NCBI GenBank assembly: GCA_023265045.1
Contig: JAHFUQ010000003.1
Location: forward strand, 30,995 to 94,994
Direction: 5' to 3'
Origin: Acidimicrobiia bacterium
Lineage (GTDB): Bacteria > Actinomycetota > Acidimicrobiia > Acidimicrobiales > AC-14
DNA length: 64,000 bases
Both the position numbers and the translations under genes were made by a program. The notes below the pieces were generated by a model that was given only the letters and a program-made list of their open reading frames with translations, made no database searches and was not told where the DNA came from. Shown piece after piece: positions 9,636 to 63,329 of this stretch (positions are counted from its first letter, which is position 1; each line of letters opens with the position of its first letter).

Positions 9636-11235
<1,600 letters not shown>

Positions 11236-11656: not shown

Positions 11657-11666
11657 GCGCAAGCGG

Positions 11667-11746
11667 GCGCCCCCGCCGGCGCCTCTCAGCTTGGTGCCCG
11701 CGCCCCGCCGGCGCCTCTCAGCTTGGTACCGGCGCCCCGCCGGTAC
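11667..11746. repeat. 32-bp tandem repeat (about 2.4 copies) ending in a GC hairpin; terminator-like
   Basis: cccgccggcgcctctcagcttggt occurs at 11672-11695 and 11704-11727. Hairpin GTACCGGC-gcccc-GCCGGTAC at 11726-11746. Confidence 0.6.
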
Positions 11747-11757
11747 GATGGGCCCGC

Positions 11758-24099: not shown

Positions 24100-25690
24100 C
24101 CGGCTCGGCCTGCTTGGTCGTCTTGGCGGGCGGTGTGGCGCCGCGGCCCTGGCGGCGGATCAGCAGCACGGCCAGGCACATCGCCAACCCGAGCCCGAAC
24201 AACCCCCCCGCCAGCCCCGCCTGCAGGCCGGTGACCTTCCGGGGCTTGACCTTCCCGAACGTCACCGTACTGGTGAAGATGTCCTGGGTTTGGCTGATGG
24301 CGTTGCCGTTGCGGGTGTCGGACCAGGCGATGATCGCCCCGTTGTTGAACGAGGCGATGGCGACGGGCGACATCACGTCGATGTTGTTGATCCAGCTGCC
24401 GATGGTGCGGTCGATGGGCACGTCGTTGACTTTGGTGTTCTTGTCCCAGGTCTCGCCGCCGTCGCGCGAGCTGGTCATGTAGACGCTTGCCACCCGGCCC
24501 CGGTTGGTGAACAGCGACAGCGTGTTGCCGGCGCCGATCGTGGGCGGCGGGAACGGGTCGTCTCGCCAGTCGTACCACGCCACGTCGATCCGCCCGTTCT
24601 TGCTCAGCGAGATCTGCGGGTAGTGCTGGCCGGTGCGGGTGCCGCGGGGGTCGTCGTTGAGCAGCTTGGGCTGGCTCCACGAGTCGCCATCCTTGGACTT
24701 GGAGAAGTAGACGTCGAGCTCCTTCTCGCGGTTGTCGTGCCAGACCACGTAGAACTGCTGGCGCTCCCGGTCGTAGAGCGGGTACACCTCGCTGGCGTCG
24801 TTGGCCCGGGCGATCTCGACGTCCTTCGTCCACGTCTTGCCGCCGTCGGTCGACGTGTTGACGTACAGCTTGGTCGTCGGCGGCTCGGTCGGCGCGGGGG
24901 CGTTCGGGTCGGTGGACGCCGCCGGCGCCGACTCCCGGTAGAAAGCGTAGAGCTTGTTGCCGACCACGATCGGCCGGGGGCCGTCAAAGCCGTTGTTCTT
25001 CTCGAACATCAGCTGGGGCGGGCTCCACGTGGCGCCGCCGTCGGTCGACGTCGACATGTAGGGCCGGGTCGGCTTGGCTGGTGTGAACCGGTTGAACGAC
25101 CGCCGCCACATGGCGTAGATCGTCTTGGGCTTAGCCGGGTCGATGGCGATGTGGCCCTCGAAGTTGACCTCCATCTGCTGGCCCATCTCCGGCGCGATGG
25201 CGCCGGGGTCGATGACCGAGGTCTCCCACGAACGCCCGCCGTCCCTGGACCGGCCGATGAGCACGCTGCGGCTGCCGTTGCGATCGTCGGCGTTGGCCTG
25301 GAACACGTTGTAGATCGTGCCGTCGGGGCCTTGGGTCAGCTCCTGGCGCAGGTTCTGCGAGGTGGCTCGGCCCTGGGCGCAGTTCTTCGTGTACGGCAGG
25401 AGCGCCGGCGCGTTCTCCTGGCGCCAGCTCAGGCCTTGGTTGGTGGAGACGTAGAACCGGCACTCGCCGGTGGTCATCTCCGTGTTGCCCAGGTAGACGG
25501 TGTTGGGGTCGTCCTGGTCGACCAGCAGCGCCGGCCCCTCGTGGTCGCGCGAGAGCGGCAGCACCTTGTCGTACTGGTCGACCTGCACGTTCTTAGACGG
25601 AGTCGCCGCGCCCTTGGCGGTCGTGGACGAGCATGCCCCCGCCACGAGCGCCAGCACGATCACACCGAGCCCAGCCTGCACCTTCCGCAT
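24092..25690 (-). CDS. BNR/Asp-box (sialidase-fold) lipoprotein with C-terminal TM anchor
   Basis: Lipobox LVAGAC. Asp-boxes SRDGGRSW, STDGGATW, STDGGKTW, SKDGDSW, SRDGGETW. C-terminal TM helix plus basic tail. Confidence 0.8.
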   Translation of the reverse strand: MRKVQAGLGVIVLALVAGACSSTTAKGAATPSKNVQVDQYDKVLPLSRDHEGPALLVDQDDPNTVYLGNTEMTTGECRFYVSTNQGLSWRQENAPALLPYTKNCAQGRATSQNLRQELTQGPDGTIYNVFQANADDRNGSRSVLIGRSRDGGRSWETSVIDPGAIAPEMGQQMEVNFEGHIAIDPAKPKTIYAMWRRSFNRFTPAKPTRPYMSTSTDGGATWSPPQLMFEKNNGFDGPRPIVVGNKLYAFYRESAPAASTDPNAPAPTEPPTTKLYVNTSTDGGKTWTKDVEIARANDASEVYPLYDRERQQFYVVWHDNREKELDVYFSKSKDGDSWSQPKLLNDDPRGTRTGQHYPQISLSKNGRIDVAWYDWRDDPFPPPTIGAGNTLSLFTNRGRVASVYMTSSRDGGETWDKNTKVNDVPIDRTIGSWINNIDVMSPVAIASFNNGAIIAWSDTRNGNAISQTQDIFTSTVTFGKVKPRKVTGLQAGLAGGLFGLGLAMCLAVLLIRRQGRGATPPAKTTKQAEPVT

Positions 25691-25776
25691 GGCTCCCCCT
25701 TCCCCCACGCCGGGTTTCCTAGCCGCCGGACCGCCGCGCTGCAATAGAGGTAGCCGACACCTACCGGGCGCCCCTC

Positions 25777-26241
25777 CTACTTGATGATGAACGTCCCCAT
25801 CATCTGGGTGGGGTGGACCTCGCAGTGGAAGTGGTACGTGCCCGGCCCCGGCAGCTTGTTGGCGGCGATCTTGAAGTCCATCTTCTTCACGCCCGTGATC
25901 TGACCGGTGGAGAAGAAGACCTGGCTGGACTCGTGGCTGGCGAGGACGGCGAACGAGTGCGGCACGCCGTTGTCCTCGTTGTCGAACGTGACAGTGATGT
26001 CCTGGCCGGCCGGGACGGCCAGGCAGTCCTTGTCCCATGCCAAGCGGGCGTTGGGGAGGGCCTGGATCGCGATGGTCGGCCCAGACGGCGAGCACGTCGC
26101 CGTGGACGCGCCGTGGTCGTGGGCGGTGGTCCCGGTCGCCCCGCCCACCGCGTCGTCGCCGGCACTGTCGTTGGAGTCGCTCCCGCACGCCGTCAGTGTG
26201 AGCAGGGCGCCCACGAGCAGAACTGTCCAGGCCTTGCGCAT
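25777..26241 (-). CDS. Cupredoxin (plastocyanin/azurin-like blue copper) lipoprotein
   Basis: Lipobox LTLTAC. Copper ligands in PHSF ... YHFHCEVHPTQMMG. Confidence 0.8.
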   Translation of the reverse strand: MRKAWTVLLVGALLTLTACGSDSNDSAGDDAVGGATGTTAHDHGASTATCSPSGPTIAIQALPNARLAWDKDCLAVPAGQDITVTFDNEDNGVPHSFAVLASHESSQVFFSTGQITGVKKMDFKIAANKLPGPGTYHFHCEVHPTQMMGTFIIK

Positions 26242-26447
26242 CGTTCCGTCATCCTCCTGAGCATGCGGGCGGCCACCCAGCGGGGCAGCCTACTGGGCGC
26301 TCTACGGATGAAGGGCGCAAAGGGATCGGTCGCCGATCAGTGGCTGGTCCCGCCCGCCGCTTTCCGGCGTCGAACACACATCCGGCGTCGAAATGCCCGT
26401 GCCGGTGCTTTGCACGCCGGAGAGCCCGGCCGAGCCCGGGTCGCCCG

Positions 26448-28028
26448 TCAGTCGTAGGCCGCTTCGACGAGCCAGCGACCGCCCTCGAGGCTCAGGAGGT
26501 AGGCGTCGCCGTCGGCGGTGACCACCTGCCAGCGGGCGCGGCGGCGGTGGTCGGAGGGGTCCCACCAGCGCTCGTCGACAGGCCACGGGCCGGCCCACGC
26601 CGCCACTCGGGCCGGGGGGCGACCGTCGACGGCGAGGCGGGCGGGCGGGCCGCTGGCCGATCCCCGGCCGTTCACGTGGACCGTTGCGCCCGTGGCGTCG
26701 ACGACGTCGGCAAGGAGCGGCGCGGCCAGGACGGTCGCCGGCGCGGGCGAGGGCAGCCGCCCGGGCCACGGCGGGCGAGGCGACGTCTCGCCGGCGCGTG
26801 GCGCCCCCCATGGGACGAGGCGGGCCTGCTCGCACGGCCCGCGGCCGCCCACCACCTCACCGGTGGCGACGGCGGCGGGGCCCAGCCGGCCTTGGATCCG
26901 CTCGAGGGCGCGTGCCACCCGCTCGGCGACCGCCCGGTCGCCGCCCCAGAACCCCGCTTGGCGCCCGCCGTCGGGGCGGACCTCTTCCGGCGCCAGCCGC
27001 AGGAGCGTGATCGGCCCCGTCGGGCGGCCCGCGCCCGGATGGTTGAGCCAGCCGTCCAGGTGCCACCGGGCCCGTTCCGCTAAGGCGGCCGCGCCGGCGC
27101 CGGGGCCGCCGCCCGATCCGGCGTCCGATTGATCGTGCAGCCGCCACAGCCGCGACCGCGACTCGCCGTGCTCGGTCTCGGCGTCGATGCGCACGGCGAC
27201 CAGGGCGAGGCCGCGGGCGGCCAGCGATTCGTGCAACTGGGCGGCCAGCGACCGGGCCACGAACGCCGCGGTCTCGACGGACTCGGCGGGGGGGTCGAGC
27301 TCGGCCGCCACGGCCAGGTCGGGAGGCGGGGTGCGCGCCGCCAGCGGCCGCTCGTCGAGGCCGCGGGCGAGCCGGTGGGCCGCTTCGCCAGGGAGGCCGA
27401 AGCGGGCCAGGACGGCCCGGCCCGGGAGGGCGGCGAACTCGCCCAGGGTGCGGATCCCGAGTCGGCGGAGCAGGTCGGGCAGGTCGGGGGCACAAGCGTC
27501 GAGGACCCTGACTGCGAAGGGGGCCAGGAACGCTGGGCTCTCGCCAGGCGGGACGAGCCGGCCTCCCTGGCGTTCGGGCACGCAGCCGGTGCGGGCCGCG
27601 AGCTCGGCCGCGAACCGCCCGTCGGCGATGCCGACGCGGGCGCCGTCGACCTGTTTGGCCACCGCGGCCGCCAGCACGTCAGCGAGGGCTTTGTCGCCGC
27701 CGAAGTACCGGGACGGGCCGCGGGTGGCGAACGCCGCCACCCCGGGGCGGAGGATCTCGACGGTCGGGGTGAACGCCTCCAGCGCCGCCACCACCGGCTC
27801 GAACGCACGGGCGTCGCGGCGGGGGTCGTGGTCGAGGACCGTCAGCCCCGGGCAGCACGCCTCCGCCTGGCGGCGGCGGTGGCCCCGCCGCACGCCATCG
27901 GCGCGGGCGGCAGCCGAGCACGCCACCACCCGGCCCGCGTCGAGGACCGCGGCCGCCTCGGTGGGCGCCACGCCCGCCGCCACGACCGGCCAGTCCGGGC
28001 GCCAGACGACCAGCATGCGCGTCGTCAT
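26448..28028 (-). CDS. imuB: Y-family polymerase-like mutasome subunit ImuB
   Basis: MLVVWRPDWPVVAAG N-terminus typical of ImuB. Located downstream of imuA'. About 526 aa. Confidence 0.8.
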   Translation of the reverse strand: MTTRMLVVWRPDWPVVAAGVAPTEAAAVLDAGRVVACSAAARADGVRRGHRRRQAEACCPGLTVLDHDPRRDARAFEPVVAALEAFTPTVEILRPGVAAFATRGPSRYFGGDKALADVLAAAVAKQVDGARVGIADGRFAAELAARTGCVPERQGGRLVPPGESPAFLAPFAVRVLDACAPDLPDLLRRLGIRTLGEFAALPGRAVLARFGLPGEAAHRLARGLDERPLAARTPPPDLAVAAELDPPAESVETAAFVARSLAAQLHESLAARGLALVAVRIDAETEHGESRSRLWRLHDQSDAGSGGGPGAGAAALAERARWHLDGWLNHPGAGRPTGPITLLRLAPEEVRPDGGRQAGFWGGDRAVAERVARALERIQGRLGPAAVATGEVVGGRGPCEQARLVPWGAPRAGETSPRPPWPGRLPSPAPATVLAAPLLADVVDATGATVHVNGRGSASGPPARLAVDGRPPARVAAWAGPWPVDERWWDPSDHRRRARWQVVTADGDAYLLSLEGGRWLVEAAYD

Positions 28029-39646: not shown

Positions 39647-39862
39647 ATGTGCCGCAGCATCATCACCCTACGGGGATCGGAACGGGCAAGCGAGGAGGAG
39701 ATGCGAGCCGCCGCCCTCCAGTTCGTGCGCAAGGTCAGCGGCTACCGCCAGCCCTCCAAGGCCAATACCGAGACCTTTCAACGAGCGGTCGACGAGATCA
39801 CCGACTCCGTGCAACGGTTGCTGGACAACCTCGCCCCCGTGCGGGGGCCGGCGGGGCCCTAA
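39647..39862 (+). CDS. DUF2277 family protein
   Basis: MCRSIITLRG..EEEMRAAALQFVRKVSGYRQPSKANTETFQRAVDEI; 71 aa. Confidence 0.8.
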   Translation: MCRSIITLRGSERASEEEMRAAALQFVRKVSGYRQPSKANTETFQRAVDEITDSVQRLLDNLAPVRGPAGP

Positions 39863-42492
39863 CTCGCCTGCTGCGACTGCGGCTCCGGGGGTTGCGGCGG
39901 CTTCTCCGGTGGCGGCGACCACGTCAGCAGCCGCTTCCCGTCGGGCGCGAACGTCACCCCCCGCCGGCGGGTCCCGAACGCCGGGATGGTGCACACCGGG
40001 TCTTGATTGCCGAGGGCCCAGACGGAGACGACACCGTCCTCGGTCGCGGCCGCGATTCGGTCGCCGTACGGGGAGACGGCCACGGCGGCGACGGCGCCGG
40101 GCGAGCGGAACGTCTCCCGCAACCCGCTGGGACCGCCAATCCAAACTCCGGTGTCCCGTGATCCGGACTCGAAGTCGGTCACCCCGACAAGCCGTCCGGA
40201 CCGGTCCCCGGGCAACGGGACAACCGCGACCTCGGCGTGAAGGCCGCCAAACTCGACCGCCTCGCCGCCACCCGTTTTGCGCATCGCGACCCGTCCGTCG
40301 TGCGACGCGTACGCCACCGATGCGCCATCCGGAGAGAAGCCGCCGAAAGCGACGGGTTGGCCGAGCAACGCCAGCTTGCCGGGGCCCTCGCTGACGGCGA
40401 GGGTGACCAGGGCGCCTTCGCCGTTCTCGTCGGTGGTCATCCCGACATCGGCGATGGGCGACAGGGCCAGGATCGGCGCCCGCTGGTAGAAGGTGTTCAG
40501 CATGCGGCCGGTGGCGAGGTCGTGGGTGAGCACCGCGCCGCCCGACACCGAAACGATGCGGGCGCAGTCAGGTGAGACGGCAACCGCCGACACGGCGCCG
40601 TCGTGGCCGTAGATCGTCAACAGCTCGTAGCCGGTGGAGACGTCCCAGACCTTCAGCGTCCGGTCGGCCGAGCCGGTGACGACGCGCGTGCCGTCGGGCG
40701 TCCACGCCGCCGCGGTGACTCGGCCGGTGTGGCCCTCGAACCCCACGAGCCGCCAGCCGGTGGCGATGTCCCACAGCTCGGCGGGCCACACCCGCGTCAT
40801 CGTCAGCCCGGGGTGCCCGAAGAACTGGAGCGTGAAGCCCGCCATCTCGCCGACCGGCGACGACCGCACTTGGCGGAGCACCTCGGCTGCTGCCACCCCA
40901 CCAGGGAGCGCTTTTTCGTAGAACTCCTCGCCGACGCCTGCCATGCGGTCGGCGGCGGCCACCCAGCGGGCGACGATTGCGCCAACCGCCCCGCTCGTGA
41001 GCCGGCTCTGAGCCGAGAAGACCTGGAAGGGCTCGTCGAGGTACGTGAATTGGGGCCGGACCGACGCGGTCGCGCCGCCCGCACCCGCGCCCAGGTGCAG
41101 CAGGTCGGTTTGGCGCATGGCCTTGGAGGGCTCGGGGTTGACCGGGAAGGCATCCCACCCCGAGACGATCGCCTCGGTCACCGGGCCCCCGGCGTACCGC
41201 ATGTCGTCGATCGCCAGGTCGAGGGGCAGCGGCAGGGGCTGGCCAGCCAACCAGTGGGCGACGGCCGCCTGGGCGCCCAGGAATGGCGGGCCGTCTGGGA
41301 ACAGCGGCTCGCGCAGCGGCACGAGCTCCCACGGGAGGGGCGGATAGTCGGCGACGACGAGGAGGCTCGGCGGCCGGCCCGTCCCGCCTGTGAAGGCGGC
41401 CCGTTGCAGGACGTCCCAGAACACGCCGTCCTCCATCGCCCGGCCCAGGGCCTCGCCCACCTTGAACTGCTCGTTCAGCGACGACGCCGAGCGGCTCATG
41501 GCGACGACTTCCTCAAGGTCGAGGGGCAGGCCGACCACGGGGCCTGACTCGAGGTACGGCGACGTGATCGAGAGCTCGAAGCCGCCGTCCGGCGGGCGGA
41601 CGAGGTCGAGGCGGATGTCGATCTGCGGCACGACCAGGCGGTGCGAGGCGCCGAGGCCGTCCTCGACCGCGACGTCGCCGGCCGCGTCGACGACCCGCAC
41701 GTCGCCGTAGCGCAGGGCCACGGTGCGGGGCATGCCGTTGTCGTCCGCACCCGACACGCGCAGCACCAACGCGTCGGAGGCCGGCACGGAGATGCGGTGG
41801 GCACGCGGCCGCGGCGGGTAGGTCAGTTCGACCGCCCCCTCGAACAGGCGAAGGCCAACAGCCGCCTCGGTGATGTCCTCGGGGAGGACGGCGGCGAGGC
41901 GAGCGGCCGTCCCCGGCGGCGGATCGCCGGCCAGGACGCGCCGCCCGCCGATCCGCGCCCCCGCTCCCATCGCCAGCAGCCATGCGGCCTGTGACGACCG
42001 GACATCCTCGGGCAGGCGGGGCACGGCGCGCGCCGCCCACCGGGCCACGTTCGCCCCCTGGTCCGGCGCACCGACCATGGCCTTCACCGCCGACAGCAGC
42101 TCGCGGTCCACTTCCTCCTCGCCGCCAGGCCGGGCCGACAGCCATGCGACCCGCTCCTCGAGCTGCACCGCGGGCGGCGAGCCCCTGTGCATCCGCTCGG
42201 TCAGCGCCCACGCGTCGGCGAGCACCTGCGGGCGGGCCGCAAGCCGCCCGCGCAAGACCTCCGCCACTTCCGCGCCGAGGACGAACCCCAACGGGCCGCG
42301 CGACTCGACCAGGGGGCTCCACCACAGGTCCGCCTCCGCGGAGACGTCGACGTCGGGCAGCAGCGCCAGGCGCGCCGCCCGCAGGAGCGCGGGCTCGATG
42401 TGGACCGCCAACGACACCACTTCGGCGAGCGCGGCGACGCCGGCGCGCTCTCGCGCCACCGCCCCAACCAGGGCGGCGGCCGGCGTCGTCAC
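39859..42492 (-). CDS. Large protein: helical N-region + CHAT-like domain lacking the His/Cys dyad + WD40 repeats
   Basis: GTG 42492 overlaps the upstream stop (GTGA). The 5' 219 codons of the 1096-aa ORF are Arg/Pro-rich, overlap the neighbouring gene, and were rejected. CHAT-like motifs: SLLVVADYPPLPWELVPL, DLLHLGAGAGG, QVFSAQSRLTSG, EEFYEKAL. WD40 motifs: GHTGRVTAAAWTPDGTRVVTGSADRTLKVWDV, GHDGAVSAVAVSPD, EDGVVSVWAL. Confidence 0.75.
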   Translation of the reverse strand: MTTPAAALVGAVARERAGVAALAEVVSLAVHIEPALLRAARLALLPDVDVSAEADLWWSPLVESRGPLGFVLGAEVAEVLRGRLAARPQVLADAWALTERMHRGSPPAVQLEERVAWLSARPGGEEEVDRELLSAVKAMVGAPDQGANVARWAARAVPRLPEDVRSSQAAWLLAMGAGARIGGRRVLAGDPPPGTAARLAAVLPEDITEAAVGLRLFEGAVELTYPPRPRAHRISVPASDALVLRVSGADDNGMPRTVALRYGDVRVVDAAGDVAVEDGLGASHRLVVPQIDIRLDLVRPPDGGFELSITSPYLESGPVVGLPLDLEEVVAMSRSASSLNEQFKVGEALGRAMEDGVFWDVLQRAAFTGGTGRPPSLLVVADYPPLPWELVPLREPLFPDGPPFLGAQAAVAHWLAGQPLPLPLDLAIDDMRYAGGPVTEAIVSGWDAFPVNPEPSKAMRQTDLLHLGAGAGGATASVRPQFTYLDEPFQVFSAQSRLTSGAVGAIVARWVAAADRMAGVGEEFYEKALPGGVAAAEVLRQVRSSPVGEMAGFTLQFFGHPGLTMTRVWPAELWDIATGWRLVGFEGHTGRVTAAAWTPDGTRVVTGSADRTLKVWDVSTGYELLTIYGHDGAVSAVAVSPDCARIVSVSGGAVLTHDLATGRMLNTFYQRAPILALSPIADVGMTTDENGEGALVTLAVSEGPGKLALLGQPVAFGGFSPDGASVAYASHDGRVAMRKTGGGEAVEFGGLHAEVAVVPLPGDRSGRLVGVTDFESGSRDTGVWIGGPSGLRETFRSPGAVAAVAVSPYGDRIAAATEDGVVSVWALGNQDPVCTIPAFGTRRRGVTFAPDGKRLLTWSPPPEKPPQPPEPQSQQAS

Positions 42493-43454
42493 GAGCCCAC
42501 CACCTGGCGGACCACCCGCACGCTCGTGGACCGGTCCCAAGGGATCACCGTGATCGCCCGGCGCAGAGCCGGCGGCACCCGCGCCGCGGGGTAGGGGACG
42601 AACGCCACAAGCGGGCACCCGGCCCTGCGCACGGTCGCCGCGAAGTCCTCCCATTCCGCCGCCGTCGCCCGCTCCGGCGATCCGGTCTCCACCAGGCCGA
42701 GGTCGGAGACGACGACCACTGGGCGGCCGCGGCGCGGCGGCTCGTACCCGATCCACGTCGCCCGCGACTTCGGCCCCGTACCCCGCGAGGGGCAGCCGGC
42801 GAAGCGGAGCACCTCCACCTGGTCGCGGCCGACGAGGGGGACGGCGGCGTCGACGATCTGGCGCTGATCGCCCCGGAACGCCAGCATGCCGTCGCCCATG
42901 TCCAGCAGCACCTGCGCGCCGAACCGGTTCGTGGGCCACGGCAGGCGCGGCAGTTGTTGCAGCGGGCGTCCGGCGGCCAGGTCGTCGACGGCCCGCTCGA
43001 CGTCGAAAGGACCGTCTTCGCTCCGGGTTGCCACCGCCGCGGTCAGGATGCCGCGCGCCCAGCGCGGCACGAAGAGGGGTTCGAGCGCGGGTGGCGGAGC
43101 CACCGGCCCGGCCGGCGCGTCCGCCAGTGCGTCGACTTCGGCCAGCCACGTGGCCGTGCGCCGGGTGGCCGACCGGCTTGCCACCGGCTCGAGCGAACTG
43201 GCGAGCGCCTCGTCGCCGTGCTGCGAGGGGGCCTTGCCACCGAACTGATCGGGCTGCTCGACGTCGCCAGCCGTGGGGTCGCCGGCGTCGGGCGCCGCGG
43301 CTGGAGTCGTCGGCGACACGGAGGGCTCCCCCGCCGGGGCGGGGGGCGCCCGTAAGCCGAGGACCACGGCGATCCGGTCCAGCGTGTCCTGGTCGACGGG
43401 ATGCAAAGCGCCGGCGGCGCGGAGGAAGTCGCCGATCGAGATCTGCGGCAGCAG
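42489..43454 (-). CDS. vWA-like protein with degenerate MIDAS (start uncertain)
   Basis: A high-GC3 frame begins right after the stop at 43472. Candidate starts are CTG 43454, TTG 43406, GTG 43367 and ATT 43508. The core QVLLDMGDGM ... RPVVVVSDLGL resembles vWA beta1/beta4. Confidence 0.55.
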   Translation of the reverse strand: MLPQISIGDFLRAAGALHPVDQDTLDRIAVVLGLRAPPAPAGEPSVSPTTPAAAPDAGDPTAGDVEQPDQFGGKAPSQHGDEALASSLEPVASRSATRRTATWLAEVDALADAPAGPVAPPPALEPLFVPRWARGILTAAVATRSEDGPFDVERAVDDLAAGRPLQQLPRLPWPTNRFGAQVLLDMGDGMLAFRGDQRQIVDAAVPLVGRDQVEVLRFAGCPSRGTGPKSRATWIGYEPPRRGRPVVVVSDLGLVETGSPERATAAEWEDFAATVRRAGCPLVAFVPYPAARVPPALRRAITVIPWDRSTSVRVVRQVVGS

Positions 43455-43471
43455 GCCCCGCTCGGCGAACC

Positions 43472-44461
43472 CTATGTCTGGCTCATCGGCCCGACGCGCT
43501 TGCGCAATGTCGCTCGTATGACCTCCTCCCAGTTCGGGGCAACGGTCGAGAGCTCGAGCTCCGCGGCGGCCCGCACGGCGTCGAGGTACTCGGCCGTGCT
43601 CGGCGCCGGCGACCCGTCTGTCGGCTTGCCCAGCCGCTTCACCTCCTCGGCGATCTTGCGGTGCTGGTCCGCGTCGCCGGACGGGAAGTGGGCCGCGGCG
43701 ATGCTGACCAGCCGGTCCACCAACTTGTCCTCGGGCGGGTCGGGGATGGGCAGGGACACACAACGCCGGAGGAACGCCCGGGGCAGCTCGCGCTCGTCGT
43801 TGGTGGTGATGATGATGAGCGGGACGCGCTCGGGCGCGACGGACACGGCCCGGCCCGACTCGTCGACCTTGAACCCCAGCGACCCCAGCGCCACCAACAG
43901 GCTGTTGGGGACGTCGGGATCGGCCTTGTCGATCTCGTCGATGAGCACGACGGCGCGGTCGCTCTCGCGCGGCGTTCCCGGCTCGAGTGGCGCCCGCCAA
44001 CCCTCGGGGAGCTCGTCGTCCTCGGGGAGCCCGCGCCGCTCGGCCTGGGCCCGGTCGAACGCCCACCACAGCACGCCCGGCTCCACGTAGGCGTCATCGA
44101 CCATGACCGCCTGGTTGGCCTGGGCGTCGCTCAGCCGGCGCACGACGTCGAACCGCCACAGGAGGTCGCGCGCCTGGGTGCGGGCCGTCACCACCGCCTC
44201 GTAGTACCGCCATCCCATCCACATCGCCACGCTGGCCGCCAGCGACGACTTGCCCGAACCCGGGTTGCCGCTCACCAGCAGGGGACGCCCGGTGGCGAGG
44301 GCGATGTTGACGGCGAGGACGATGTCGTCGGTGTACTCGTAGACCTTGCCGTCCCGACGATCGCCGACCGCCCCGCCGGCGGGCGCCGCCTTCGTCGGTC
44401 CCTGCCGCTCGGGCGCCGGTTCCAGCACAGGCTGGGGATTGAAGAACTTCTGGTAGCCCAT
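43472..44461 (-). CDS. MoxR-like (AAA_5-type) AAA+ ATPase
   Basis: ATG 44461 directly abuts the upstream stop (TGAATG). Walker A GNPGSGKSS, Walker B VVLIDEIDKAD, IIITTNDERELPRAFLRRC. Confidence 0.85.
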   Translation of the reverse strand: MGYQKFFNPQPVLEPAPERQGPTKAAPAGGAVGDRRDGKVYEYTDDIVLAVNIALATGRPLLVSGNPGSGKSSLAASVAMWMGWRYYEAVVTARTQARDLLWRFDVVRRLSDAQANQAVMVDDAYVEPGVLWWAFDRAQAERRGLPEDDELPEGWRAPLEPGTPRESDRAVVLIDEIDKADPDVPNSLLVALGSLGFKVDESGRAVSVAPERVPLIIITTNDERELPRAFLRRCVSLPIPDPPEDKLVDRLVSIAAAHFPSGDADQHRKIAEEVKRLGKPTDGSPAPSTAEYLDAVRAAAELELSTVAPNWEEVIRATLRKRVGPMSQT

Positions 44462-45547
44462 TCAGGTCCTCCCTGCACCGCACGCGCGCTTGGCGTCGCG
44501 TAGGGCGCGGTTGATGTCCCGCCAGTACGCGGCTTCGCGCGCCGGGTCCAACTCGGGAACCACGTAGTCGACGTCGGGGAGCGCCAGCGCCGCGAACTCA
44601 GGGCGGGTCATCTCGCCGGTGAGGAACAGGAAGCTGACCTTGGCGTAGCCCTTGGCCCGGATGGCCTGGAGGTCGGCGGCGGTGGGAACCGGCGGCGGGA
44701 ACACGAGCACGACGGGCAGGGCGCTGAGCTCTTCGTCCAGGTCCTCGGGGGGGAACCCGAGCGCCTCTTCCACCGCGCTGGCCACGCGTTGCTCGAGGTC
44801 GGCGAGGTCGGGACCCCAGCCGCCCGGGACCTCCTGCACGCCCCACATCGGGGGCGCCCAGCACGCGGCGCCGGTCACCATTCGCCCCGTCTCGGTGCGC
44901 GCCGACTTGACCCCGAGGCCGCGCCGCGACGGCACGGCGTCGCGAACCAGGGCGACCGCGGCCTGATCGATGCACGCGAACGGCGCGGCCACGGTGACCA
45001 CGGCGCCGGCCCGCTCGCACAGCTGTGAAGACAACGCCGTGACGGCCGACACCAGCGTCTCCAAGTCGGTCTCCAGCAGCCTGCGCGCGAGCACCCAGCG
45101 CATGTCCTCCTCCGTGCCGCTGAGGACGACGCCGAGGATCTCCCCGGCCTCCTTGTAGAGCCCGACGTCAGCGCCCTTCAGCAGCCCGGCAAGCTGACCC
45201 TCGACGTGGTGGCGAGGGGTCTTCTCCACGATCTGGACGGATGCCGCCGGGCTCGCGGCGACGGTGATGTTGAAGATGTCGCCACCGGCGACGTCGCCGA
45301 CGTTCACCGAGCCCGCAATGGCGCCCTTGAAATCCACGACGGCGCGCCCGACGCTGACCGCCTTGGCGCCGACCAGTGCCTCGATGAGCTCGGCTTCGGC
45401 CGCGAGCGCGTCCTTCGCGGCTTCGGGGGTGGTGCCGCCATTGGCGAGGTCGGCGACGATCCGCGCCAGCGTGGGGACGCGCCCCTTGAGGGCCGGCGGG
45501 GCCGCCCGCTCGAGGACGGCCTCGAGGTCCGACGAGGAGACGGTCAC
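44462..45547 (-). CDS. Hypothetical protein sharing a Gly/Val-rich ~34-aa motif with the upstream caspase (adaptor candidate)
   Basis: GTG 45547 overlaps the caspase stop (GTGA). Helical N-terminus of about 60 aa, motif VDFKGAIAGSVNVGDVAGGDIFNITVAASPAASV, then an alpha/beta-like C-terminal domain. No family recognised. Confidence 0.7.
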   Translation of the reverse strand: MTVSSSDLEAVLERAAPPALKGRVPTLARIVADLANGGTTPEAAKDALAAEAELIEALVGAKAVSVGRAVVDFKGAIAGSVNVGDVAGGDIFNITVAASPAASVQIVEKTPRHHVEGQLAGLLKGADVGLYKEAGEILGVVLSGTEEDMRWVLARRLLETDLETLVSAVTALSSQLCERAGAVVTVAAPFACIDQAAVALVRDAVPSRRGLGVKSARTETGRMVTGAACWAPPMWGVQEVPGGWGPDLADLEQRVASAVEEALGFPPEDLDEELSALPVVLVFPPPVPTAADLQAIRAKGYAKVSFLFLTGEMTRPEFAALALPDVDYVVPELDPAREAAYWRDINRALRDAKRACGAGRT

Positions 45548-46788
45548 CCGTGCGTGCGGGCCCGCTGCAACAACACGCCCACGGCGTCGCTCAACGTCTC
45601 CGGCGCGCCCATGGCCAGCAACGCCCGCTGCGCCGAGTCCAACTTTTCGAGCATGCGCCGGTCGTCGCCCGCGTCGCCCGCCTCCTTGGCCTTGCGGAGG
45701 TCGTCGGCGGCGTCCTCCTGGCGGCCTTTCTGCGCGGCTGGCGCGGCGAGGCCGGCGACGTCGGCCCGCGCCCCGGCGATGGCGGCGAGAAGGTCGGCGC
45801 GGCCCGTCACCGCCGCCGCCGCAGCGGGCGTGGTCGTGATCTTCACGATGTCGCGCCCGGCCACGTCGCCCATCGTCACCGAACCGATCGTCGCACCCTC
45901 GAACGACACGACGCTCGTCTTCTCGACAACCGCCACCGGGAACGTCTCCACGGCGCCGTCAGGGAGGCTCTGACGTATGGCCGGCGCGCCGAGGGCGGAC
46001 CGGTCGACGATGCCGTCGCCGAAGAACGAGACCGCGAACGGGCCCACCCCTTCGGACAGGTTGAGGACGGGCTCCTGCGCGACCCGCAGCTCGGCCGCCC
46101 CCGCGATGACCGTCTTGTACAGGTACTCGTATAGCTCGAACAGGCCGACGTAGCCCGGACGGTCCATGCCCTTGCCTCGCAGCCCGTCGATGAGCGCCTG
46201 CCCGAACAGCGTCGTCGGCGCCTGCGGCCGGTAGTACGACGACTGCGTGGCGCGCGCCGCGGTGATGACGGCCCGGCCCTCGCCGCTGGCGAGCACGCGG
46301 GCGCTGAGAGCGGGCGTCGGGGGAGCGCTCTCGGCCCCCAGGGTGGCGTGGATCTCGCCCGACAGGCACGCGTTGATGACGAAGAGGAGCTTGCGGGCCT
46401 TGATGGCCCGCAAGGCGGCCAGCAGCGCCGGCTCGCCCAACCCGGTCCCCTGCAGCGCCAGCTTCCCGGGGCTGAACTGGGTGTCATGGGTCGCCAGCGT
46501 GTACTGCCCGTCGTCGCCCGGGACCCCGTGGCCGGCGAAGAAGATGAGCACGACGTCGTCGGCGGTCGCGCGCGCCGCCAGGTCGGCGAAGGCGTCGTTC
46601 ACCGCCTCGAGCACGGCGCCCTCGTCGTGCAGCAGCCCGACCTGGCCGGCCGGATAGCCGGCGACCTTCTCGTCAATGAGCGCGTCGCGCACTCCTGTCG
46701 CATCCCCCACGGTGATGGGAGCGCTCCACCCCGGGGCCTGGTACTGGCCCACTCCGATCACCAGCGCGTGGCCTTCCGCGAACGCCAT
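45544..46788 (-). CDS. Caspase-like (peptidase C14) protease with C-terminal Gly/Val-rich motif and helical tail
   Basis: HALVIGVGQY start of the domain. Catalytic contexts VVLIFFAGHG (His) and LLFVINACLSG (Cys). Alternative GTG start at 46818. Confidence 0.8.
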   Translation of the reverse strand: MAFAEGHALVIGVGQYQAPGWSAPITVGDATGVRDALIDEKVAGYPAGQVGLLHDEGAVLEAVNDAFADLAARATADDVVLIFFAGHGVPGDDGQYTLATHDTQFSPGKLALQGTGLGEPALLAALRAIKARKLLFVINACLSGEIHATLGAESAPPTPALSARVLASGEGRAVITAARATQSSYYRPQAPTTLFGQALIDGLRGKGMDRPGYVGLFELYEYLYKTVIAGAAELRVAQEPVLNLSEGVGPFAVSFFGDGIVDRSALGAPAIRQSLPDGAVETFPVAVVEKTSVVSFEGATIGSVTMGDVAGRDIVKITTTPAAAAAVTGRADLLAAIAGARADVAGLAAPAAQKGRQEDAADDLRKAKEAGDAGDDRRMLEKLDSAQRALLAMGAPETLSDAVGVLLQRARTHG

Positions 46789-46846
46789 GGCGCGGGAGCC
46801 TACCGACGGACGAACCACGCCGCCCCTGGTCCTCTACCATGCCGCC

Positions 46847-47587
46847 GTGGCAGGCCCAGAGATCACCAAGCAGCCCCAGCGCCAGACCGTCGCCGCCGGC
46901 ATGCCGGCGCGCTTTGAGGTCGTCGCCACCGGCGCCACCGAGTATGCGTGGGCGAACGAGGCGGGACCGATCGCGGGAGCGACATCGGCCACCTATGTCG
47001 TCACCGCGACGGCCGAGCTTTCCGGGACGAAATACCGCGTCACCGTCAAGAACGCGGCCGGGGAATCACGCATCAGCGACTGGGCGACGTTGACGGTCGC
47101 CGCCGAGGTTCCCGTCGTCTACGAACCGCGGTTCGCGGCAGTCGCCGCGGCCGCCTTGCTGGCGACCTTCCTTGTGGTCCTGTGGCCGATCTGGGCAATC
47201 GCCGGGCGGGTCGCGTTCAACAAGAACGTGAGCTTTCCCGCGGTCATCGCCGTGCAGCTGGTGATCGTCGGCGTGCTGATCGCCCTGGCCGGCGTGTACC
47301 TCTCGCTGCTCGAGTTCCGGGGCCGGGCCCGCACCATGGCCGAACTGCGCCCGCCCGCCGGTCCCGAGGCGGCGGCCGTCGGGGACCTCGGCGCGGTCGA
47401 CGAGGTCGCCAAGTCCATCCCCGAAGCCCTCAAGGCCTTCGGTCAGCTCAAGGCGCCGGCGGCCGCCATGGCCGTCGCCGCCCTGCTGTTCATCTGCGCG
47501 ACGGCGATCTCGTGGCGCGGCCTCCCGTCGACGTCCTCACCAACCGCCCCGACGACCACAGCCGCGCCCACCACGACCAAGCCATAA
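46847..47587 (+). CDS. Membrane protein with N-terminal Ig-like domain
   Basis: GTG 46847. PEITKQPQRQTVAAGMPARFEVVATGATEYAW...GTKYRVTVKNAAGESRISDWATLTV, then 3 TM helices and a Thr/Pro tail. Divergent from the caspase operon. Confidence 0.65.
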   Translation: MAGPEITKQPQRQTVAAGMPARFEVVATGATEYAWANEAGPIAGATSATYVVTATAELSGTKYRVTVKNAAGESRISDWATLTVAAEVPVVYEPRFAAVAAAALLATFLVVLWPIWAIAGRVAFNKNVSFPAVIAVQLVIVGVLIALAGVYLSLLEFRGRARTMAELRPPAGPEAAAVGDLGAVDEVAKSIPEALKAFGQLKAPAAAMAVAALLFICATAISWRGLPSTSSPTAPTTTAAPTTTKP

Positions 47588-47786: not shown

Positions 47787-49403
47787 ATGAAGCGTCGCGG
47801 GATGCTGCTATTGGCCCTGTTGGCGGTCGTCCCCGCGGGGCCGGCCCTGGCGGCGGCGAAAACGTTCCCACCCAACGTGGACAGCTCGGTCCAGGTGACG
47901 ACCGACCCGAGCGCGTCGCGAGCCCACACGGTGCCGGCCGTCGCCGTCAGCCCGAAGGACGACAACATCGTCGCCATCGCCGAGGCGGACGCCTACTCGT
48001 CGCAATGCGCCGTCCACATCTCGACCAACGCGGGCCTGAGCTGGACGACGGCGGCCGCGCCCAAGACGGTCGGCGACTGGCCGAACTGCGCCTTCGTCCC
48101 CTTCGGCCCCGTGGTCGACGTGGCCTTCGGCCCCGACGGCGCCCTCTACTACGCCTACAGCGGCTTCAACCCGATCAGCAAGAAGTCGCGGGTGTTCCTC
48201 TCCCGCTCGAACGACCTCGGCACCACGTGGGAAACGACCATGCTGCCGTGGATCGCGCCGGACCTGACCAAGGGCGAGGCGGGCGTCGACGCGGTGCCGT
48301 CGATCGCCGTCGACCCGCACAACGCCCAGCACGTGTGGGTGGGGTGGGGGTCCAACTGGGCCACCTACACGCTCAACGCCGAGGTCTTGCAGAGCAAGCT
48401 GTACTACTGGGACGTGATCGAGCGGGTCTACGTGGCCGCGTCGACCGACGGCGGCAAGACTTTCGCCGACCCGGTCAACGTGGGCGACGGGCTCAAGCTC
48501 ACTCCGGACATCGAAGGCGTGAAGCCGCCGCCCCAGGTCATCGCCGGCAACAACGGCGAAGTGTTCGCCCTCTTCGGCGAGTACTCGCGGGGCGGCTCCC
48601 GGGACGTTCGCACCGGCAATGCGCCCCCCGCCCACGTGTACTGGGCGGCGTCGACCGACGGCGGCAAGACGTACACCAACAAGTCGATCTACACCCAGCC
48701 GACGCCGACGATGACCTCCGACTGGACGTGGGTGCCGCGCGGCGGCATCGACCGCTCCAACGGCAACCTCTACGTGGCGTGGGAGCAGATGTCGGCGGCG
48801 GGGGCGGCCGTGCAGATCTCGACCATCCGCTCGGTCGACGCGGGCAAGACCTGGAGCCAGCCGGCGAAGGCCAACGACTACACCCCGGTCCGGCAGTGGA
48901 ACTACCCGGAGGCCTACCCGGCGCTCAGCGTCGCGCCCAACGGCCGGGTCGACGTGGCCTGGTACGACTACCGCAACGACTCCACCTACGTCGCGCCCGC
49001 CCGGGCCAACAACTTCCAGGACGTCTATTACACCTACTCGACCGACGGCGGCCGCACGTGGGCGCCGAACGTGAGGATGACCGACCGGCTGATCGACCGG
49101 CGGTTCGGGCCGTCGCAACAGGGCGGCATCCGGGGGCCGGTGGGGCTGGCGTCGCGCGACGACACGGCCTTCGTCGCGTGGGACGACTCGCGCAACGGCA
49201 GTCCGACCAATGCGTCCCAGGACATCTACTTCGCCCGCGCCCGCCTCGACTCGCCGGCCGAGGTGTTCGGGTCGCCGCCGGGCACGTCCCGGGTAACGTG
49301 GGCGTTCCTCGGCGCCGCCATCGCCCTGGGCGTCGGGGGGTTGGCGCTGGTCCTCGCCTTGGCGACGGTGCGCCGCCGCCAACCCGAGGCGGCCGCCTCC
49401 TAA
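47787..49403 (+). CDS. BNR/Asp-box (sialidase-fold) protein with signal peptide and C-terminal TM anchor
   Basis: Asp-boxes STNAGLSW, SNDLGTTW, STDGGKTF, STDGGKTY, SVDAGKTW, STDGGRTW. Paralogue of 24092-25690. Confidence 0.8.
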   Translation: MKRRGMLLLALLAVVPAGPALAAAKTFPPNVDSSVQVTTDPSASRAHTVPAVAVSPKDDNIVAIAEADAYSSQCAVHISTNAGLSWTTAAAPKTVGDWPNCAFVPFGPVVDVAFGPDGALYYAYSGFNPISKKSRVFLSRSNDLGTTWETTMLPWIAPDLTKGEAGVDAVPSIAVDPHNAQHVWVGWGSNWATYTLNAEVLQSKLYYWDVIERVYVAASTDGGKTFADPVNVGDGLKLTPDIEGVKPPPQVIAGNNGEVFALFGEYSRGGSRDVRTGNAPPAHVYWAASTDGGKTYTNKSIYTQPTPTMTSDWTWVPRGGIDRSNGNLYVAWEQMSAAGAAVQISTIRSVDAGKTWSQPAKANDYTPVRQWNYPEAYPALSVAPNGRVDVAWYDYRNDSTYVAPARANNFQDVYYTYSTDGGRTWAPNVRMTDRLIDRRFGPSQQGGIRGPVGLASRDDTAFVAWDDSRNGSPTNASQDIYFARARLDSPAEVFGSPPGTSRVTWAFLGAAIALGVGGLALVLALATVRRRQPEAAAS

Positions 49404-61232: not shown

Positions 61233-62189
61233 CTATGGCAACCTCGATGACCAAATGAGCGATCCCCCTGCGGCGGCCAGGGCGAAGAGCAGCCCGAGAC
61301 CGACGAACCACGCCGTCACTTCGCGGGGCACCGTCCGGTACCCGATGGAGCTGCCGATGTCGGCGTAGACCTGCTTCAGCTCCTTGCCCGACGTTGCGTC
61401 GAACGCCTTGCCCCCGGTCGTCTCGGCCAACTGGCGCAGGGCGTCGCGGTTCACCGGCACGGGGACGAGCCGGCCCTCGACGGCCACCGTCCCGTCGTCG
61501 GTGCCGAAGGCGATGGTGTACACCGGGACCTTGGCCTCGGCTGCGGCCTGCCCGGCTTGCTCGTTCGGCCGGCCGACGGTGGTCTCGCCGTCGGACATGA
61601 GCACGATGCGGGCCGGCGGCTTGCTCTGGCCCGGCTCGCTCGGGACCGAGTTGATGCTTTGCAGCGACAGGAACACCGCCTCGCCGATGGCGGTGCGGGG
61701 GCCGAGCTCGAGGGTGGAGATGCTGCGTTTAACCAGGTCGTGGTCGGTGGTCGGCGACACCAGCACCTGCGCCGTGCCCGAGAACGACACGAGCCCCAGG
61801 TTCAGGCGGGCGGGGAGCAGGTCGACGAAGGAGGCGGCGGCGTCCTTGGCCGCGGCGATGCGCGTCGGGTTGACGTCGGTCGCCTCCATCGAGAGGGAGA
61901 CGTCGATGGCCATGACCACCGTCGCCCGCTCCCGCGGGACCTTCTCGGGACGGGACGGCTTGGCGAAGGCGGTGACGAACACCGTGAGCGCCATCAGCGA
62001 GGCGATGGCGGGAACGTGGCGCCGCCACGCCGGGCGCCTGGGCGCGATGCGGTCGAGCAGGGCCAGGTTGGTGAAGCGCACCGCGTAGTGCTTGCGGCGG
62101 AATTGCTGGACGACGTACACGGCGCCCAGCCCGGCGACGACCACGAGCAGCCACAGGCGGGCGCCGGCTTGGAAGCTGAGCGCGGTCAC
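61233..62189 (-). CDS. vWA domain protein (BatA-like) with N-terminal TM helices
   Basis: GTG 62189 overlaps the DUF58 stop (GTGA). MIDAS MAIDVSLSM, LVSFSG, VLMSDGETT. Confidence 0.85.
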   Translation of the reverse strand: MTALSFQAGARLWLLVVVAGLGAVYVVQQFRRKHYAVRFTNLALLDRIAPRRPAWRRHVPAIASLMALTVFVTAFAKPSRPEKVPRERATVVMAIDVSLSMEATDVNPTRIAAAKDAAASFVDLLPARLNLGLVSFSGTAQVLVSPTTDHDLVKRSISTLELGPRTAIGEAVFLSLQSINSVPSEPGQSKPPARIVLMSDGETTVGRPNEQAGQAAAEAKVPVYTIAFGTDDGTVAVEGRLVPVPVNRDALRQLAETTGGKAFDATSGKELKQVYADIGSSIGYRTVPREVTAWFVGLGLLFALAAAGGSLIWSSRLP

Positions 62190-63172: not shown

Positions 63173-63329
63173 CGGGCCGCCGCCTTCGGCGGCCGCCCCG
63201 CTGAGCGGGGCTGCTGTGACACTGGCTCGCTCGCCTGCGGCTCGCTCACCGGGTCGCCGCCTTCGGCGGCCGCCCCGCTGAGCGGGGCTGCTGTGACACT
63301 GGTTCGCTCGCCTGCGGCTCGCTCACCGG
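63170..63329. repeat. 77-bp intercistronic tandem repeat (2 copies + 6 nt) with two GC hairpins per unit
   Basis: Units 63170-63246 and 63247-63323 are 75/77 identical. Hairpins GCCGCC-ttcg-GGCGGC and CCCCGC-tga-GCGGGG. The repeats fill the whole MoxR-DUF58 spacer. Confidence 0.9.

Follow-up and report, generated by a model that had tools for sequence, protein, structure and literature searches.

Five genes on the minus strand of a 64,000-nucleotide stretch of contig JAHFUQ010000003.1 from an Acidimicrobiia bacterium (this whole stretch is called the window, and its coordinates are used below) probably form one operon, 39859-46788, that encodes a TERNS3-type MoxR–vWA ternary conflict system with a caspase as the executioner recruited by a hub protein. 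The probability of this reading is put at about three in four. From 5' to 3', the products are a caspase-like protease (g1), the hub or third component (g2), a MoxR-class AAA+ ATPase (g3), a vWA-like protein (g4) and a vWA-L linker protein with a variable C-terminal payload (g5). The TERNS3 class is itself a computational prediction (Kaur, Iyer, Burroughs and Aravind 2021, eLife 10:e70394; PMC8195603), and a literature search found TERNS3 named in one paper only. The published layout begins at the 5' end with the third component (TERNS3-N+TERNS3, in most cases fused to a TIR) and continues with MoxR, a separate vWA gene, and an alpha-helical vWA-L with variable effectors (PMC8195603). A preliminary description of this DNA had proposed a MoxR–vWA "ternary" conflict-type operon as predicted by the Aravind group; homology upholds that proposal and refines the family to TERNS3 (PMC8195603). 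The class is already catalogued, as are hubs with a protease, payloads with a beta-propeller and the division into vWA and vWA-L genes; only the arrangement of a trans-encoded caspase with an adaptor-TERNS3 hub is new.

The gene order agrees with that of the catalogued systems, and the four core proteins are homologous to their counterparts. Two entries of the published source table, KDN76873.1 (S. olindensis, 422 aa, locus L004) and KNZ33320.1 (Methylibium sp. NZG, 444 aa, L006), are both listed as "TIR+TERNS3-N+TERNS3 -> MoxR -> vWA -> vWA-L+..." (PMC8195603). Identity between the window and these two loci is 43-48% for MoxR (48% to L004 and 43% to L006; L002 and L005 reach 49-50%), 34-48% for vWA (48% over 193 aa to L004, 34% to L006) and 36-38% for vWA-L. 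The window has the third component domain, a MoxR gene directly 3' of it (junction TGAATG) and an adjacent vWA-L with variable modules; beta-propeller and caspase domains are already among the catalogued payloads. A signalling domain fused to the TERNS3 N-terminus is absent. The window hub carries a ~105-residue adaptor instead of the TIR that nearly all catalogued members have, and its protease is a separate upstream gene with a 27-residue motif in common with the hub. This arrangement is absent from all ~80 neighbourhoods of the whole source table; the nearest are one fused CASPASE+TIR+TERNS3, one trypsin+TERNS3, and one EAD1+TERNS3 with EAD1-linked ubiquitin-system genes (PMC8195603). Since an EAD1+TERNS3 case is catalogued, an N-terminal signalling domain is typical rather than defining of TERNS3.

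The window, from a metagenomic contig (ENA ERZ27279942 k141_1091985), has a GC content of ~72%, and chance open reading frames (ORFs) are frequent at such high GC. However, GC at third codon positions (GC3) is 0.91-0.93, with about 0.5 at second positions (GC2), in g1, g2, g3 and g5, and in the g4 frame GC3 jumps to 0.94 directly past the g3 stop. These values indicate that g1-g5 are real coding regions and not chance ORFs. Homologues exist for all five products. The coordinates of the minus-strand five-ORF operon proposed earlier are all correct, and the junctions GTGA (45544-45547), TGAATG (44459-44464) and GTGA (42489-42492) were each found as quoted; the g3/g4 junction, which had been left undescribed, is no normal coupled junction. 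Searches of Pfam, NCBIfam and PADLOC returned zero matches for g2, g4 and residues 1-570 of g5. Scans for promoters and terminators, tRNAs and Rfam families gave nothing informative.

Profile–profile alignment showed g2 to be, as judged by homology, the third component, the family-defining TERNS3 hub. The alignment of g2 and four orthologues (set A4) with KDN76873.1, KNZ33320.1 and the corresponding proteins of L002 and L005 (set A5) by hhalign has a probability of 97.1% and an E-value of 5.9e-11 over g2 residues 129-355. Direct searches did not detect the link: BLAST and a hidden Markov model (HMM) of six TIR+TERNS3 sequences gave only 4.8 bits, and a word-indexed homologue search with g2 returned g2 itself only. 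A full HMMER scan was therefore needed in addition to the profile alignment. The scan, over 1.84 billion representatives, shows that g2 is modular. Matches to residues 2-105 lie at the N-termini of a large number of unrelated proteins, and those to residues ~108-350 lie in the C-terminal halves of proteins of ~405-430 aa with an N-terminal TIR or ~485 aa with an N-terminal trypsin domain, which are the published TIR+TERNS3 and trypsin+TERNS3 architectures. Transitive BLAST and HMMER links lead through P0027, P0034 and P0069 to KDN76873.1 and KNZ33320.1, and these two catalogued proteins align end to end with the g2-matching intermediates. Thus, g2 consists of an N-terminal adaptor followed by TERNS3-N+TERNS3, with no TIR and no peptidase in Pfam or NCBIfam. 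The preliminary description had called g2 a motif-sharing partner of the caspase. The shared motif is real (56% identity over 36 aa by BLASTP, E 3e-7), but the hhalign result makes the protein the family-defining third component and not an accessory.

The caspase domain of g1 is followed by a linker, one copy of the shared beta-motif and a helical C-terminal tail. It scores 29.8 bits against Pfam Peptidase_C14 (gathering threshold 21.4), a model that is above threshold in six of six orthologues, 57 bits against the PADLOC "caspase" model, and 102 bits, under the cut-off of 140, against NCBIfam caspase_w_EACC1 ("caspase, EACC1-associated type"). The C14-type His/Cys dyad noted in the preliminary description is borne out by the Peptidase_C14 and caspase_w_EACC1 matches and by the invariance of H87 and C141 in the six orthologues. 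Because the dyad is invariant, g1 is predicted to be an active caspase. A search of PDB sequences with g1 gave no match. The Pfam TCAD2 model matches the caspase tail of the Anaerolineales locus L003 only, and the g1 tail is accordingly not called TCAD2.

The AAA_5/MoxR assignment of g3 stands, and Walker A, Walker B and IIITTNDERELPRAFLRRC, all quoted earlier, are present. The protein scores 49 bits against Pfam AAA_5 and 28.8 bits against Pfam bpMoxR (gathering threshold 27), the latter over model positions 17-87 of 205, the P-loop part only. A search of PDB sequences returned only weak Midasin P-loop matches, and a scan of viral contigs found distant MoxR relatives only, at 23-28% identity.

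The g4 protein is accepted as vWA-like, from homology to the catalogued vWA genes and a marginal fold match. Its 20 homologues (family A1) have a common plan: an N-terminal helix pair (I..GDLxRA...LLGL), a ~70-residue disordered Pro/Ala-rich linker, and a ~190-residue alpha/beta domain. The AlphaFold2 (AF2) model has a mean confidence (pLDDT) of 77 overall and >90 in the core, and places a strand at residues 190-195 before a long helix. At the metal ion-dependent adhesion site (MIDAS), DxSxS is replaced by DxGxG; the aspartate is invariant and the serines are absent across A1. The best Foldseek match in the PDB is chain G of a NorQD complex (E 4.7e-4, probability 0.96, TM-scores 0.24 and 0.32), presumably NorD, the vWA partner of a MoxR ATPase; the remaining matches are generic Rossmann-like folds. 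The g4 profile found nothing at E<=10 among PDB sequences, and no Pfam or NCBIfam model matched. The VVVVSDLG segment is in register with VVVVSDF of a DUF58 protein in the window, a likeness limited to the beta4 segment and not significant. Of the vWA-like core with a degenerate MIDAS proposed earlier, the DxGxG signature and the homology to catalogued vWA genes hold; the fold support, from the low-TM match to NorD, is weak.

The N-terminus of g5, described earlier simply as part of a CHAT-like/WD40 protein, is the known vWA-L linker. This module consists of a helical domain and a small beta domain, and 16 alignment columns are invariant among ten divergent homologues. It is common to proteins ending in TIR, PLD, trypsin, VipA/VipB, TIR+CHAT, CBM48+amylase or TIR+NB-ARC+TPR, architectures that match the "vWA-L+effector" entries of the Kaur 2021 source data. 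The WD40 module proposed at the C-terminus is confirmed (Pfam WD40, 80.4 bits, three significant repeats; many beta-propeller families match over residues 572 to ~870). Between them, residues 291-570 are possibly a degenerate, inactive CHAT-like domain. LPWEL, LLH, FSAQS and FFGHPG are by eye collinear with CHAT landmarks, and the catalytic His/Cys positions are not conserved among orthologues. The only family match, to Pfam CHAT, occurs in one of three orthologues (E 0.019) and not in the window protein; hhalign against two CHAT domains gave a probability of 0.2%, and phmmer against the same two domains and hmmsearch of PDB sequences gave nothing significant. The region is found only in other WD40-type cassettes (P0104, L084), and AF2 models it at pLDDT 33. 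As read from its residues, the g5 payload (CHAT-like plus WD40) is non-catalytic.

Several other known systems resemble the operon in part. The VMAP and iSTAND/iSTAND2 ternary systems (Kaur et al. 2020, eLife 9:e52696; 2021) share with it the MoxR–vWA thresholding pair, a third component with an N-terminal peptidase or adaptor, effectors behind vWA-L and the EAD principle. However, Pfam and NCBIfam find no VMAP-C, VMAP-M or iSTAND in the window products, and the g3 N-terminus lacks the WxhapG and PsWRxa motifs of the VMAP systems. The beta-propeller (bpMoxR) ternary systems (Kaur et al. 2020, subsystem 4) also combine MoxR, a vWA-like protein and a propeller-ending protein, but here g4 ends right after its alpha/beta domain and the propeller is on g5, the P-loop of g3 is the canonical GNPGSGKS and not GxxxTAKS, and g5 has no TPR in Pfam. 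The caspase domain of g1 is closest to the EACC1-associated model and thus recalls the two-gene EACC1–caspase system (Kaur et al. 2020, System 4), although its score is below the cut-off, its partner is TERNS3 and lies downstream rather than upstream, and the EACC1 model has no match in g2 or its neighbours (Pfam, NCBIfam). The NorQ/NorD, RavA/ViaA and CoxD/CoxE pairs likewise set an AAA_5/MoxR motor beside a vWA-like partner with a long linker; the window differs in having no client enzyme, a degenerate MIDAS and a variable, effector-bearing operon. The experimentally studied Esr pathway of oral Actinomycetales, which has MoxR, vWA and beta-propeller sensors, is related by its authors to the Aravind ternary systems (bioRxiv 10.64898/2026.09.08.750141), but its propellers are surface-exposed, it includes a kinase/phosphatase pair, FHA proteins and an Esx secretion output, and it has no TERNS3, vWA-L or caspase.

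The shared beta-motif and its adaptor module

The motif that links the caspase to the hub is 27 residues long, rich in Gly, Val and Asp, and has the consensus hhSFGxGSQxGDVxIGDVAGGDIxKhxh. The caspase copy is VVSFEGATIGSVTMGDVAGRDIVKITT and the hub copy is VVDFKGAIAGSVNVGDVAGGDIFNITV; it is terminal in neither protein. The training set for an HMM of the motif comprised 34 N-terminal modules and no caspase: five came from g2 and its four orthologues, and the other 29 from unrelated, mostly NLR-like proteins. Over the six-frame ORFs of the window, this HMM found g1 and g2 only, each at E 4e-10. Over 1.27 Mb of fetched loci it found, besides the training proteins, only the caspase of every cassette (five), at E 1e-4 to 1e-8. 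A permuted duplication of the helical g1 tail and the helical g2 N-terminus was considered and rejected: hhalign finds the two unrelated, with the beta-motif alone in common. Since the helical flanks are unrelated, the motif is a portable unit.

Cassettes of the WD40 group showed no preferential pairing of a motif with its own partner, as their copies are too similar to reveal co-variation. Locus L003 uses a different motif, VGxxAxVxQAAAGxNIQQ, which matches its own caspase only (score 77 versus <=39 for others). The L003 motif is Q/N-rich and occurs twice in the L003 caspase. A literal-string search of the literature for the g1/g2 motif found nothing.

The whole module of ~100 residues (consensus ...ALPxxL...LAxLLAD...LSPEEAQ..LA..P.L..AL.ALAG....G..hISFGxGSQxGDVxIGDVAGGDIxKL) has no model in Pfam or NCBIfam. 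It heads NACHT, NB-ARC-TPR, TIR-TPR, pentapeptide-repeat and SAVED proteins (P0039-P0102; L096-L103). For example, locus L099 (2034-7821) has three consecutive adaptor-bearing genes, for a small protein, a NACHT+FGE-sulfatase protein and a NACHT protein; in two other NLR contexts the motif HMM found no adjacent gene with the motif. Because many NLR-like, SAVED and TIR proteins carry this unmodelled module, defining it would improve the annotation of bacterial immune genes.

Matching adaptors on adjacent genes, as in g1 and g2, are the "EAD principle" of Kaur et al. The layout also resembles that of two kinds of amyloid signalling pair: the NLR/Bell pairs with BASS motifs (Dyrka et al. 2020) and, from antiphage defence in E. 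coli, Bab/Agp with BASS11 (Ibarlosa et al. 2024 preprint). In these pairs, as in g1 and g2, adjacent immune-type genes share a Gly-rich beta-motif of ~20-30 residues, one copy is on the receptor or hub and the other on the executioner, and the motif also occurs at NACHT/NB-ARC N-termini. The pairs differ in that the g1/g2 motif is not terminal and the executioner is a protease and not a Bell pore-former; they are likened by layout alone. Amyloid coupling has an experimental precedent in Bab/Agp (Ibarlosa et al. 2024 preprint), and Agp belongs to the TPR-GreA/B-C-PIN class described by Kaur et al., whose archetypal member has an EAD10 adaptor. The 27-residue motif could, in a speculative extension that we consider unlikely, be an undescribed bacterial amyloid-like templating motif: oligomerisation of the hub, under control of the MoxR–vWA switch, would seed a beta-assembly whose polymerisation recruits and activates the caspase, and the same N-terminal module would prime NACHT, NB-ARC, SAVED and TIR immune proteins alike. 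If true, such templating would give bacteria an equivalent of the prion-like CARD/RHIM step of caspase activation.

Recurrence of the cassette and the start of g4

A check on the conservation of the five-gene neighbourhood, suggested in the preliminary description, gave a positive result. The cassette caspase->adaptor-TERNS3->MoxR->vWA->vWA-L...WD40 recurs in the same order, and complete, in the independent contigs L083, L084 and L086/L087 (the last of 2.6 Mb), and its first genes are present on the partial contigs L082 and L085. Identities between the window and the other cassettes are listed in Table 1. The genes flanking the cassette differ between contigs, which indicates that it moves as a unit. 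Besides that of g2, no more than four 50%-identity clusters among the 1.84 billion representatives show its complete architecture; a scan of JGI metagenomes with the g2 family added N-terminal adaptor modules and no new full cassette. In L083 the g5-like gene (11053-13925) lies in at least two frames with a gap in the gene calls, probably a frameshift of the long-read assembly.

A scan of GTDB species genomes with g3 identified a small MoxR clade, 39-50% identical, at seven loci: in Actinomycetospora, an Anaerolineales metagenome-assembled genome, two Streptomyces, Methylibium, Thiothrix and a verrucomicrobium. Five of the seven have homologues of g4 and of the g5 N-terminus downstream; L007 and L008 have g4 only, at 27-29% identity. 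The remaining ~70 MoxR matches form a more distant clade without g4- or g5-like neighbours. Upstream of MoxR, five of the seven loci (L002, L004-L007) encode a protein of ~420-500 aa with a TIR-type N-terminus, confirmed as TIR by Pfam for L002. The g5-like proteins of these loci are alike over their first ~250-290 residues and then fully divergent, ending in TIR+CHAT (L003), CBM48+alpha-amylase (L002), VipA+VipB (L006), TIR+NB-ARC+TPR (L005), CHAT (L004) or TIR+FGE-sulfatase (L007).

Individual loci show further variation. L003 (5124-14121, Anaerolineales) has the same five-gene layout with a TIR+CHAT payload and a caspase with the Pfam TCAD2 tail, and its hub keeps a weak TIR_2 match (23.9 bits, under the gathering score of 28). 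In L006 (10025-12820), vWA-L is fused to the type VI secretion sheath proteins VipA+VipB; VipA/VipB payloads are in the published catalogue. In L002 (10621-15090), vWA-L is joined to two CBM48 domains and an alpha-amylase catalytic domain, which may be the catalogued "TIM_barrel_glycosyl_hydrolase". The TIR+FGE-sulfatase protein of L007 (8881-12114) apparently has vWA and vWA-L fused in one ORF; FGS payloads are in the published catalogue. Core relatives sit on large Streptomyces plasmids, and RefSeq calls their vWA gene "hypothetical protein". One of these, the TIR-type locus L095 of Streptomyces europaeiscabiei (NZ_CP107864.1, 391360-406406), lies next to ParB on a 417 kb linear mobilizable plasmid and consists of genes for a 690 aa TIR protein, MoxR, a "hypothetical protein" (the vWA homologue) and a 1489 aa TPR protein.

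The start of g4 is anomalous. Its frame is -1 relative to g3, and an ATA overlaps the g3 TAG ("ATAG") and is followed by CTG CTG and ATC. This frame has no ATG, GTG or TTG from 43700 until TTG 43406, its first canonical start, which is downstream of the conserved N-terminal helix ISIGDFLRAAGAL. The same NTAG geometry ("CTAG"), with no canonical start before the helix, is found in L084 (4471-4531) and L086/L087 (10050-10130), which keep PVPEGDLPPL[IV]FA upstream of the helix, while L083 and the TIR-type loci have a normal ATG or GTG start at the MoxR stop. Gene finders shortened the vWA protein in all three NTAG cassettes and currently miss its N-terminus. It seems most likely that g4 is made by non-canonical initiation or by termination-reinitiation. 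A MoxR–vWA frameshift fusion is considered less likely, because there is no slippery site and vWA-frame residues upstream of the stop are not conserved. The conserved absence of a canonical start hints at deliberately low or coupled translation of the switch subunit.

Proposed mechanism and alternative readings

At rest, the vWA and vWA-L/WD40 proteins would be in complex, with a MoxR hexamer on the vWA protein by analogy with NorQ/NorD. NorQD, in which a vWA finger enters the AAA+ pore and the linker is remodelled, is the MoxR–vWA precedent (PMC13036017). The WD40/CHAT-like module, as sensor or bait, would bind an invader-derived ligand. ATP-driven remodelling would then act as a threshold switch, in keeping with the activation threshold that the MoxR–vWA pair sets in Kaur's model (PMC8195603), and the TERNS3 hub would oligomerise. 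Its motif would pair homotypically with the copy in the caspase, thereby concentrating and activating the protease, which as the executioner would cleave host or invader proteins and lead to abortive infection or growth arrest. The caspase is the sole degradative enzyme of the operon. With a non-catalytic payload beside it, the WD40/CHAT-like module is favoured as sensor or bait and the caspase as executioner.

A number of points weigh against this reading. The operon has no system-level match in PADLOC, and its flanks in the window are housekeeping-like or metabolic, with no defence or mobile genes adjoining. A literature search found no experimental phenotype for TERNS3 or for any MoxR–vWA ternary system of such layout, so the defence function is itself a prediction. 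The vWA assignment of g4 combines homology to proteins called vWA in the literature with one marginal fold match, and the MIDAS is degenerate. Moreover, g4 has no canonical start at the expected place, which makes its expression level and even its integrity uncertain. Sequence does not decide which component is sensor and which is effector, and the order favoured here is one that we infer; the published model would give the effector role to the vWA-L payload and make the protease a signalling enzyme (PMC8195603).

With those published roles, the hub-recruited caspase would cleave the vWA-L protein or the vWA linker and release the CHAT-like/WD40 part, which would be the effector as a decoy, dominant-negative binder or superstructure scaffold. 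We judge this unlikely, though it deserves weight: Kaur et al. assign the vWA-L-fused modules as effectors and the third-component peptidases and TIR as signalling domains, and describe many payloads as inactive versions of cellular modules that serve as decoys. The non-catalytic g5 payload agrees with this, and the long disordered or linker regions of g4 and g5 are candidates for cleavage. However, no conserved cleavage site was identified, and it is not evident how a WD40 propeller joined to an inactive CHAT-like domain would stop an invader. The same slot in sister systems holds clearly toxic TIR, PLD and trypsin domains, and is thus not uniformly a "decoy" slot. Decay of the cassette in this genome, with the vWA gene having lost its start codon and the switch no longer made at normal levels, is very improbable. 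The absence of any ATG, GTG or TTG upstream of the conserved g4 helix, the N-terminal stretch in question being LLPQISIGDFLR, would fit decay, but GC3 stays at 0.94, the protein sequence is conserved throughout the region, and all other genes of the operon are intact. The same NTAG oddity recurs in the diverged L084 and L086 with PVPEGDLPPL conserved upstream of the helix; a start oddity common to two diverged cassettes with conserved residues points to selection and not decay.

The least probable reading, which we hardly credit, is a housekeeping MoxR–vWA chaperone of the NorQ/NorD, CoxD/CoxE or RavA/ViaA kind that matures a cellular complex, with the caspase-like protein as a processing protease and no role in immunity. 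MoxR–vWA pairs are best known as maturation chaperones, the best fold match of g4 is NorD, and the window flanks are metabolic or housekeeping. Yet homologous cores carry widely different payloads and TIR, trypsin or caspase heads, their distribution across phyla is patchy and their genomic contexts varied, the adaptor is also found on NACHT, NB-ARC and SAVED proteins, and there is no conserved client gene nearby. Furthermore, a separate classical MoxR–DUF58–VWA operon is already present in the window.

The reading as a TERNS3 conflict system with a hub-recruited caspase places the locus in a large family. The MoxR–vWA ternary systems have been predicted, purely by computation, to be machines of immunity or cell death, with enrichment in filamentous and multicellular bacteria, and the window adds to them a rare variant of the predicted class, an unannotated adaptor module and an odd vWA start. 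With five genes, a caspase as the one degradative enzyme, for which a dead mutant makes an easy control, and a hub–protease link reduced to a 27-residue motif that lends itself to mutation and swapping, it is a compact test case for the gating of a bacterial caspase by an AAA+/vWA pair. It could also tell plain homotypic contact between hub and protease from a templated prion-like assembly of the kind seen in eukaryotic death-fold and RHIM signalling.

Feature coordinates and neighbouring genes

Table 1. Genes, domains and motifs of the operon, in window coordinates; residue numbers refer to the protein named. P1 to P5 are the five products, with their identity between the window and the other cassettes.
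Feature	Coordinates	Strand	Residues	Details
g1, caspase-like (C14) protease	45544-46788	minus		414 aa, ATG start; P1 identity 40-58%; 37-58% to the caspases of five other cassettes
Caspase domain			g1 ~6-227	followed by linker, shared beta-motif, helical C-terminal tail
FFAGHG	46525-46542	minus	g1 83-88	catalytic His87 (predicted); F83, A85, G86, H87, G88 invariant in 6 orthologues
INACLSG	46357-46377	minus	g1 138-144	catalytic Cys141 (predicted); N139, A140, C141, G144 invariant in 6 orthologues
Beta-motif, caspase copy	45832-45912	minus	g1 293-319	VVSFEGATIGSVTMGDVAGRDIVKITT
g2, hub/third component	44462-45547	minus		361 aa, GTG start; P2 identity 31-49%
N-terminal adaptor module	45233-45547	minus	g2 1-105	helical part, then beta-motif
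Beta-motif, hub copy	45260-45340	minus	g2 70-96	VVDFKGAIAGSVNVGDVAGGDIFNITV
TERNS3-N + TERNS3 region	44483-45163	minus	g2 129-355	from hhalign
g3, MoxR-class AAA+ ATPase	43472-44461	minus		329 aa, ATG start; P3 identity 55-72%
Walker A, GNPGSGKSS	44243-44269	minus	g3 65-73	K71
Walker B, VVLIDEIDKAD	43919-43951	minus	g3 171-181	D175/E176
IIITTNDERELPRAFLRRC		minus	g3 216-234	peptide quoted in the preliminary description
g4, vWA-like co-chaperone	42489 to about 43475-43477	minus		~320 aa; upper bound is the ATA overlapping the g3 TAG; P4 identity 41-47%
Conserved N-terminal helix	43404-43442	minus		ISIGDFLRAAGAL; D19, A23 near-invariant in A1
LLDMGDGM	42885-42908	minus		MIDAS DxSxS position, here DxGxG; D195 invariant, serines absent across A1
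VVVVSDLG	42696-42719	minus		beta4 strand, "TDG"-like vWA element; D261, G263 invariant
g5, vWA-L linker protein + variable C-terminal payload	39859-42492	minus		877 aa, GTG start; P5 identity 33-40%
vWA-L module	41623-42492	minus	g5 1-~290	helical domain + small beta domain
Middle region	40783-41622	minus	g5 291-570	possibly degenerate, inactive CHAT-like domain
WD40 beta-propeller	39862-40779	minus	g5 ~572-877	

At its 3' end the operon abuts a convergent gene. The g5 stop (TAG, minus strand) overlaps the stop of a DUF2277 gene (TAA, plus strand, ORF end 39862) at 39859-39862 in the tetranucleotide CTAA, with no intergenic space and no terminator-like hairpin. Two plus-strand genes diverge from g1 and are absent next to the other cassettes. 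The first (46789-47587) encodes a protein of 246-303 aa with no family match and a hydrophobic stretch, and the second (47787-49403) a 538 aa BNR/sialidase-like protein that looks secreted and has a weak Tli3-like match. The classical MoxR operon of the window (61233-63988, minus strand) encodes an AAA_3/AAA_lid_2 ATPase, a DUF58 protein and a VWA/BatA protein, runs toward the window end, and is unrelated to g1-g5 except for the MoxR–vWA theme. A swing in composition occurs at 24001-28000, where GC falls to 0.673 over 24-26 kb and rises to 0.779 over 26-28 kb, the background being ~0.72.

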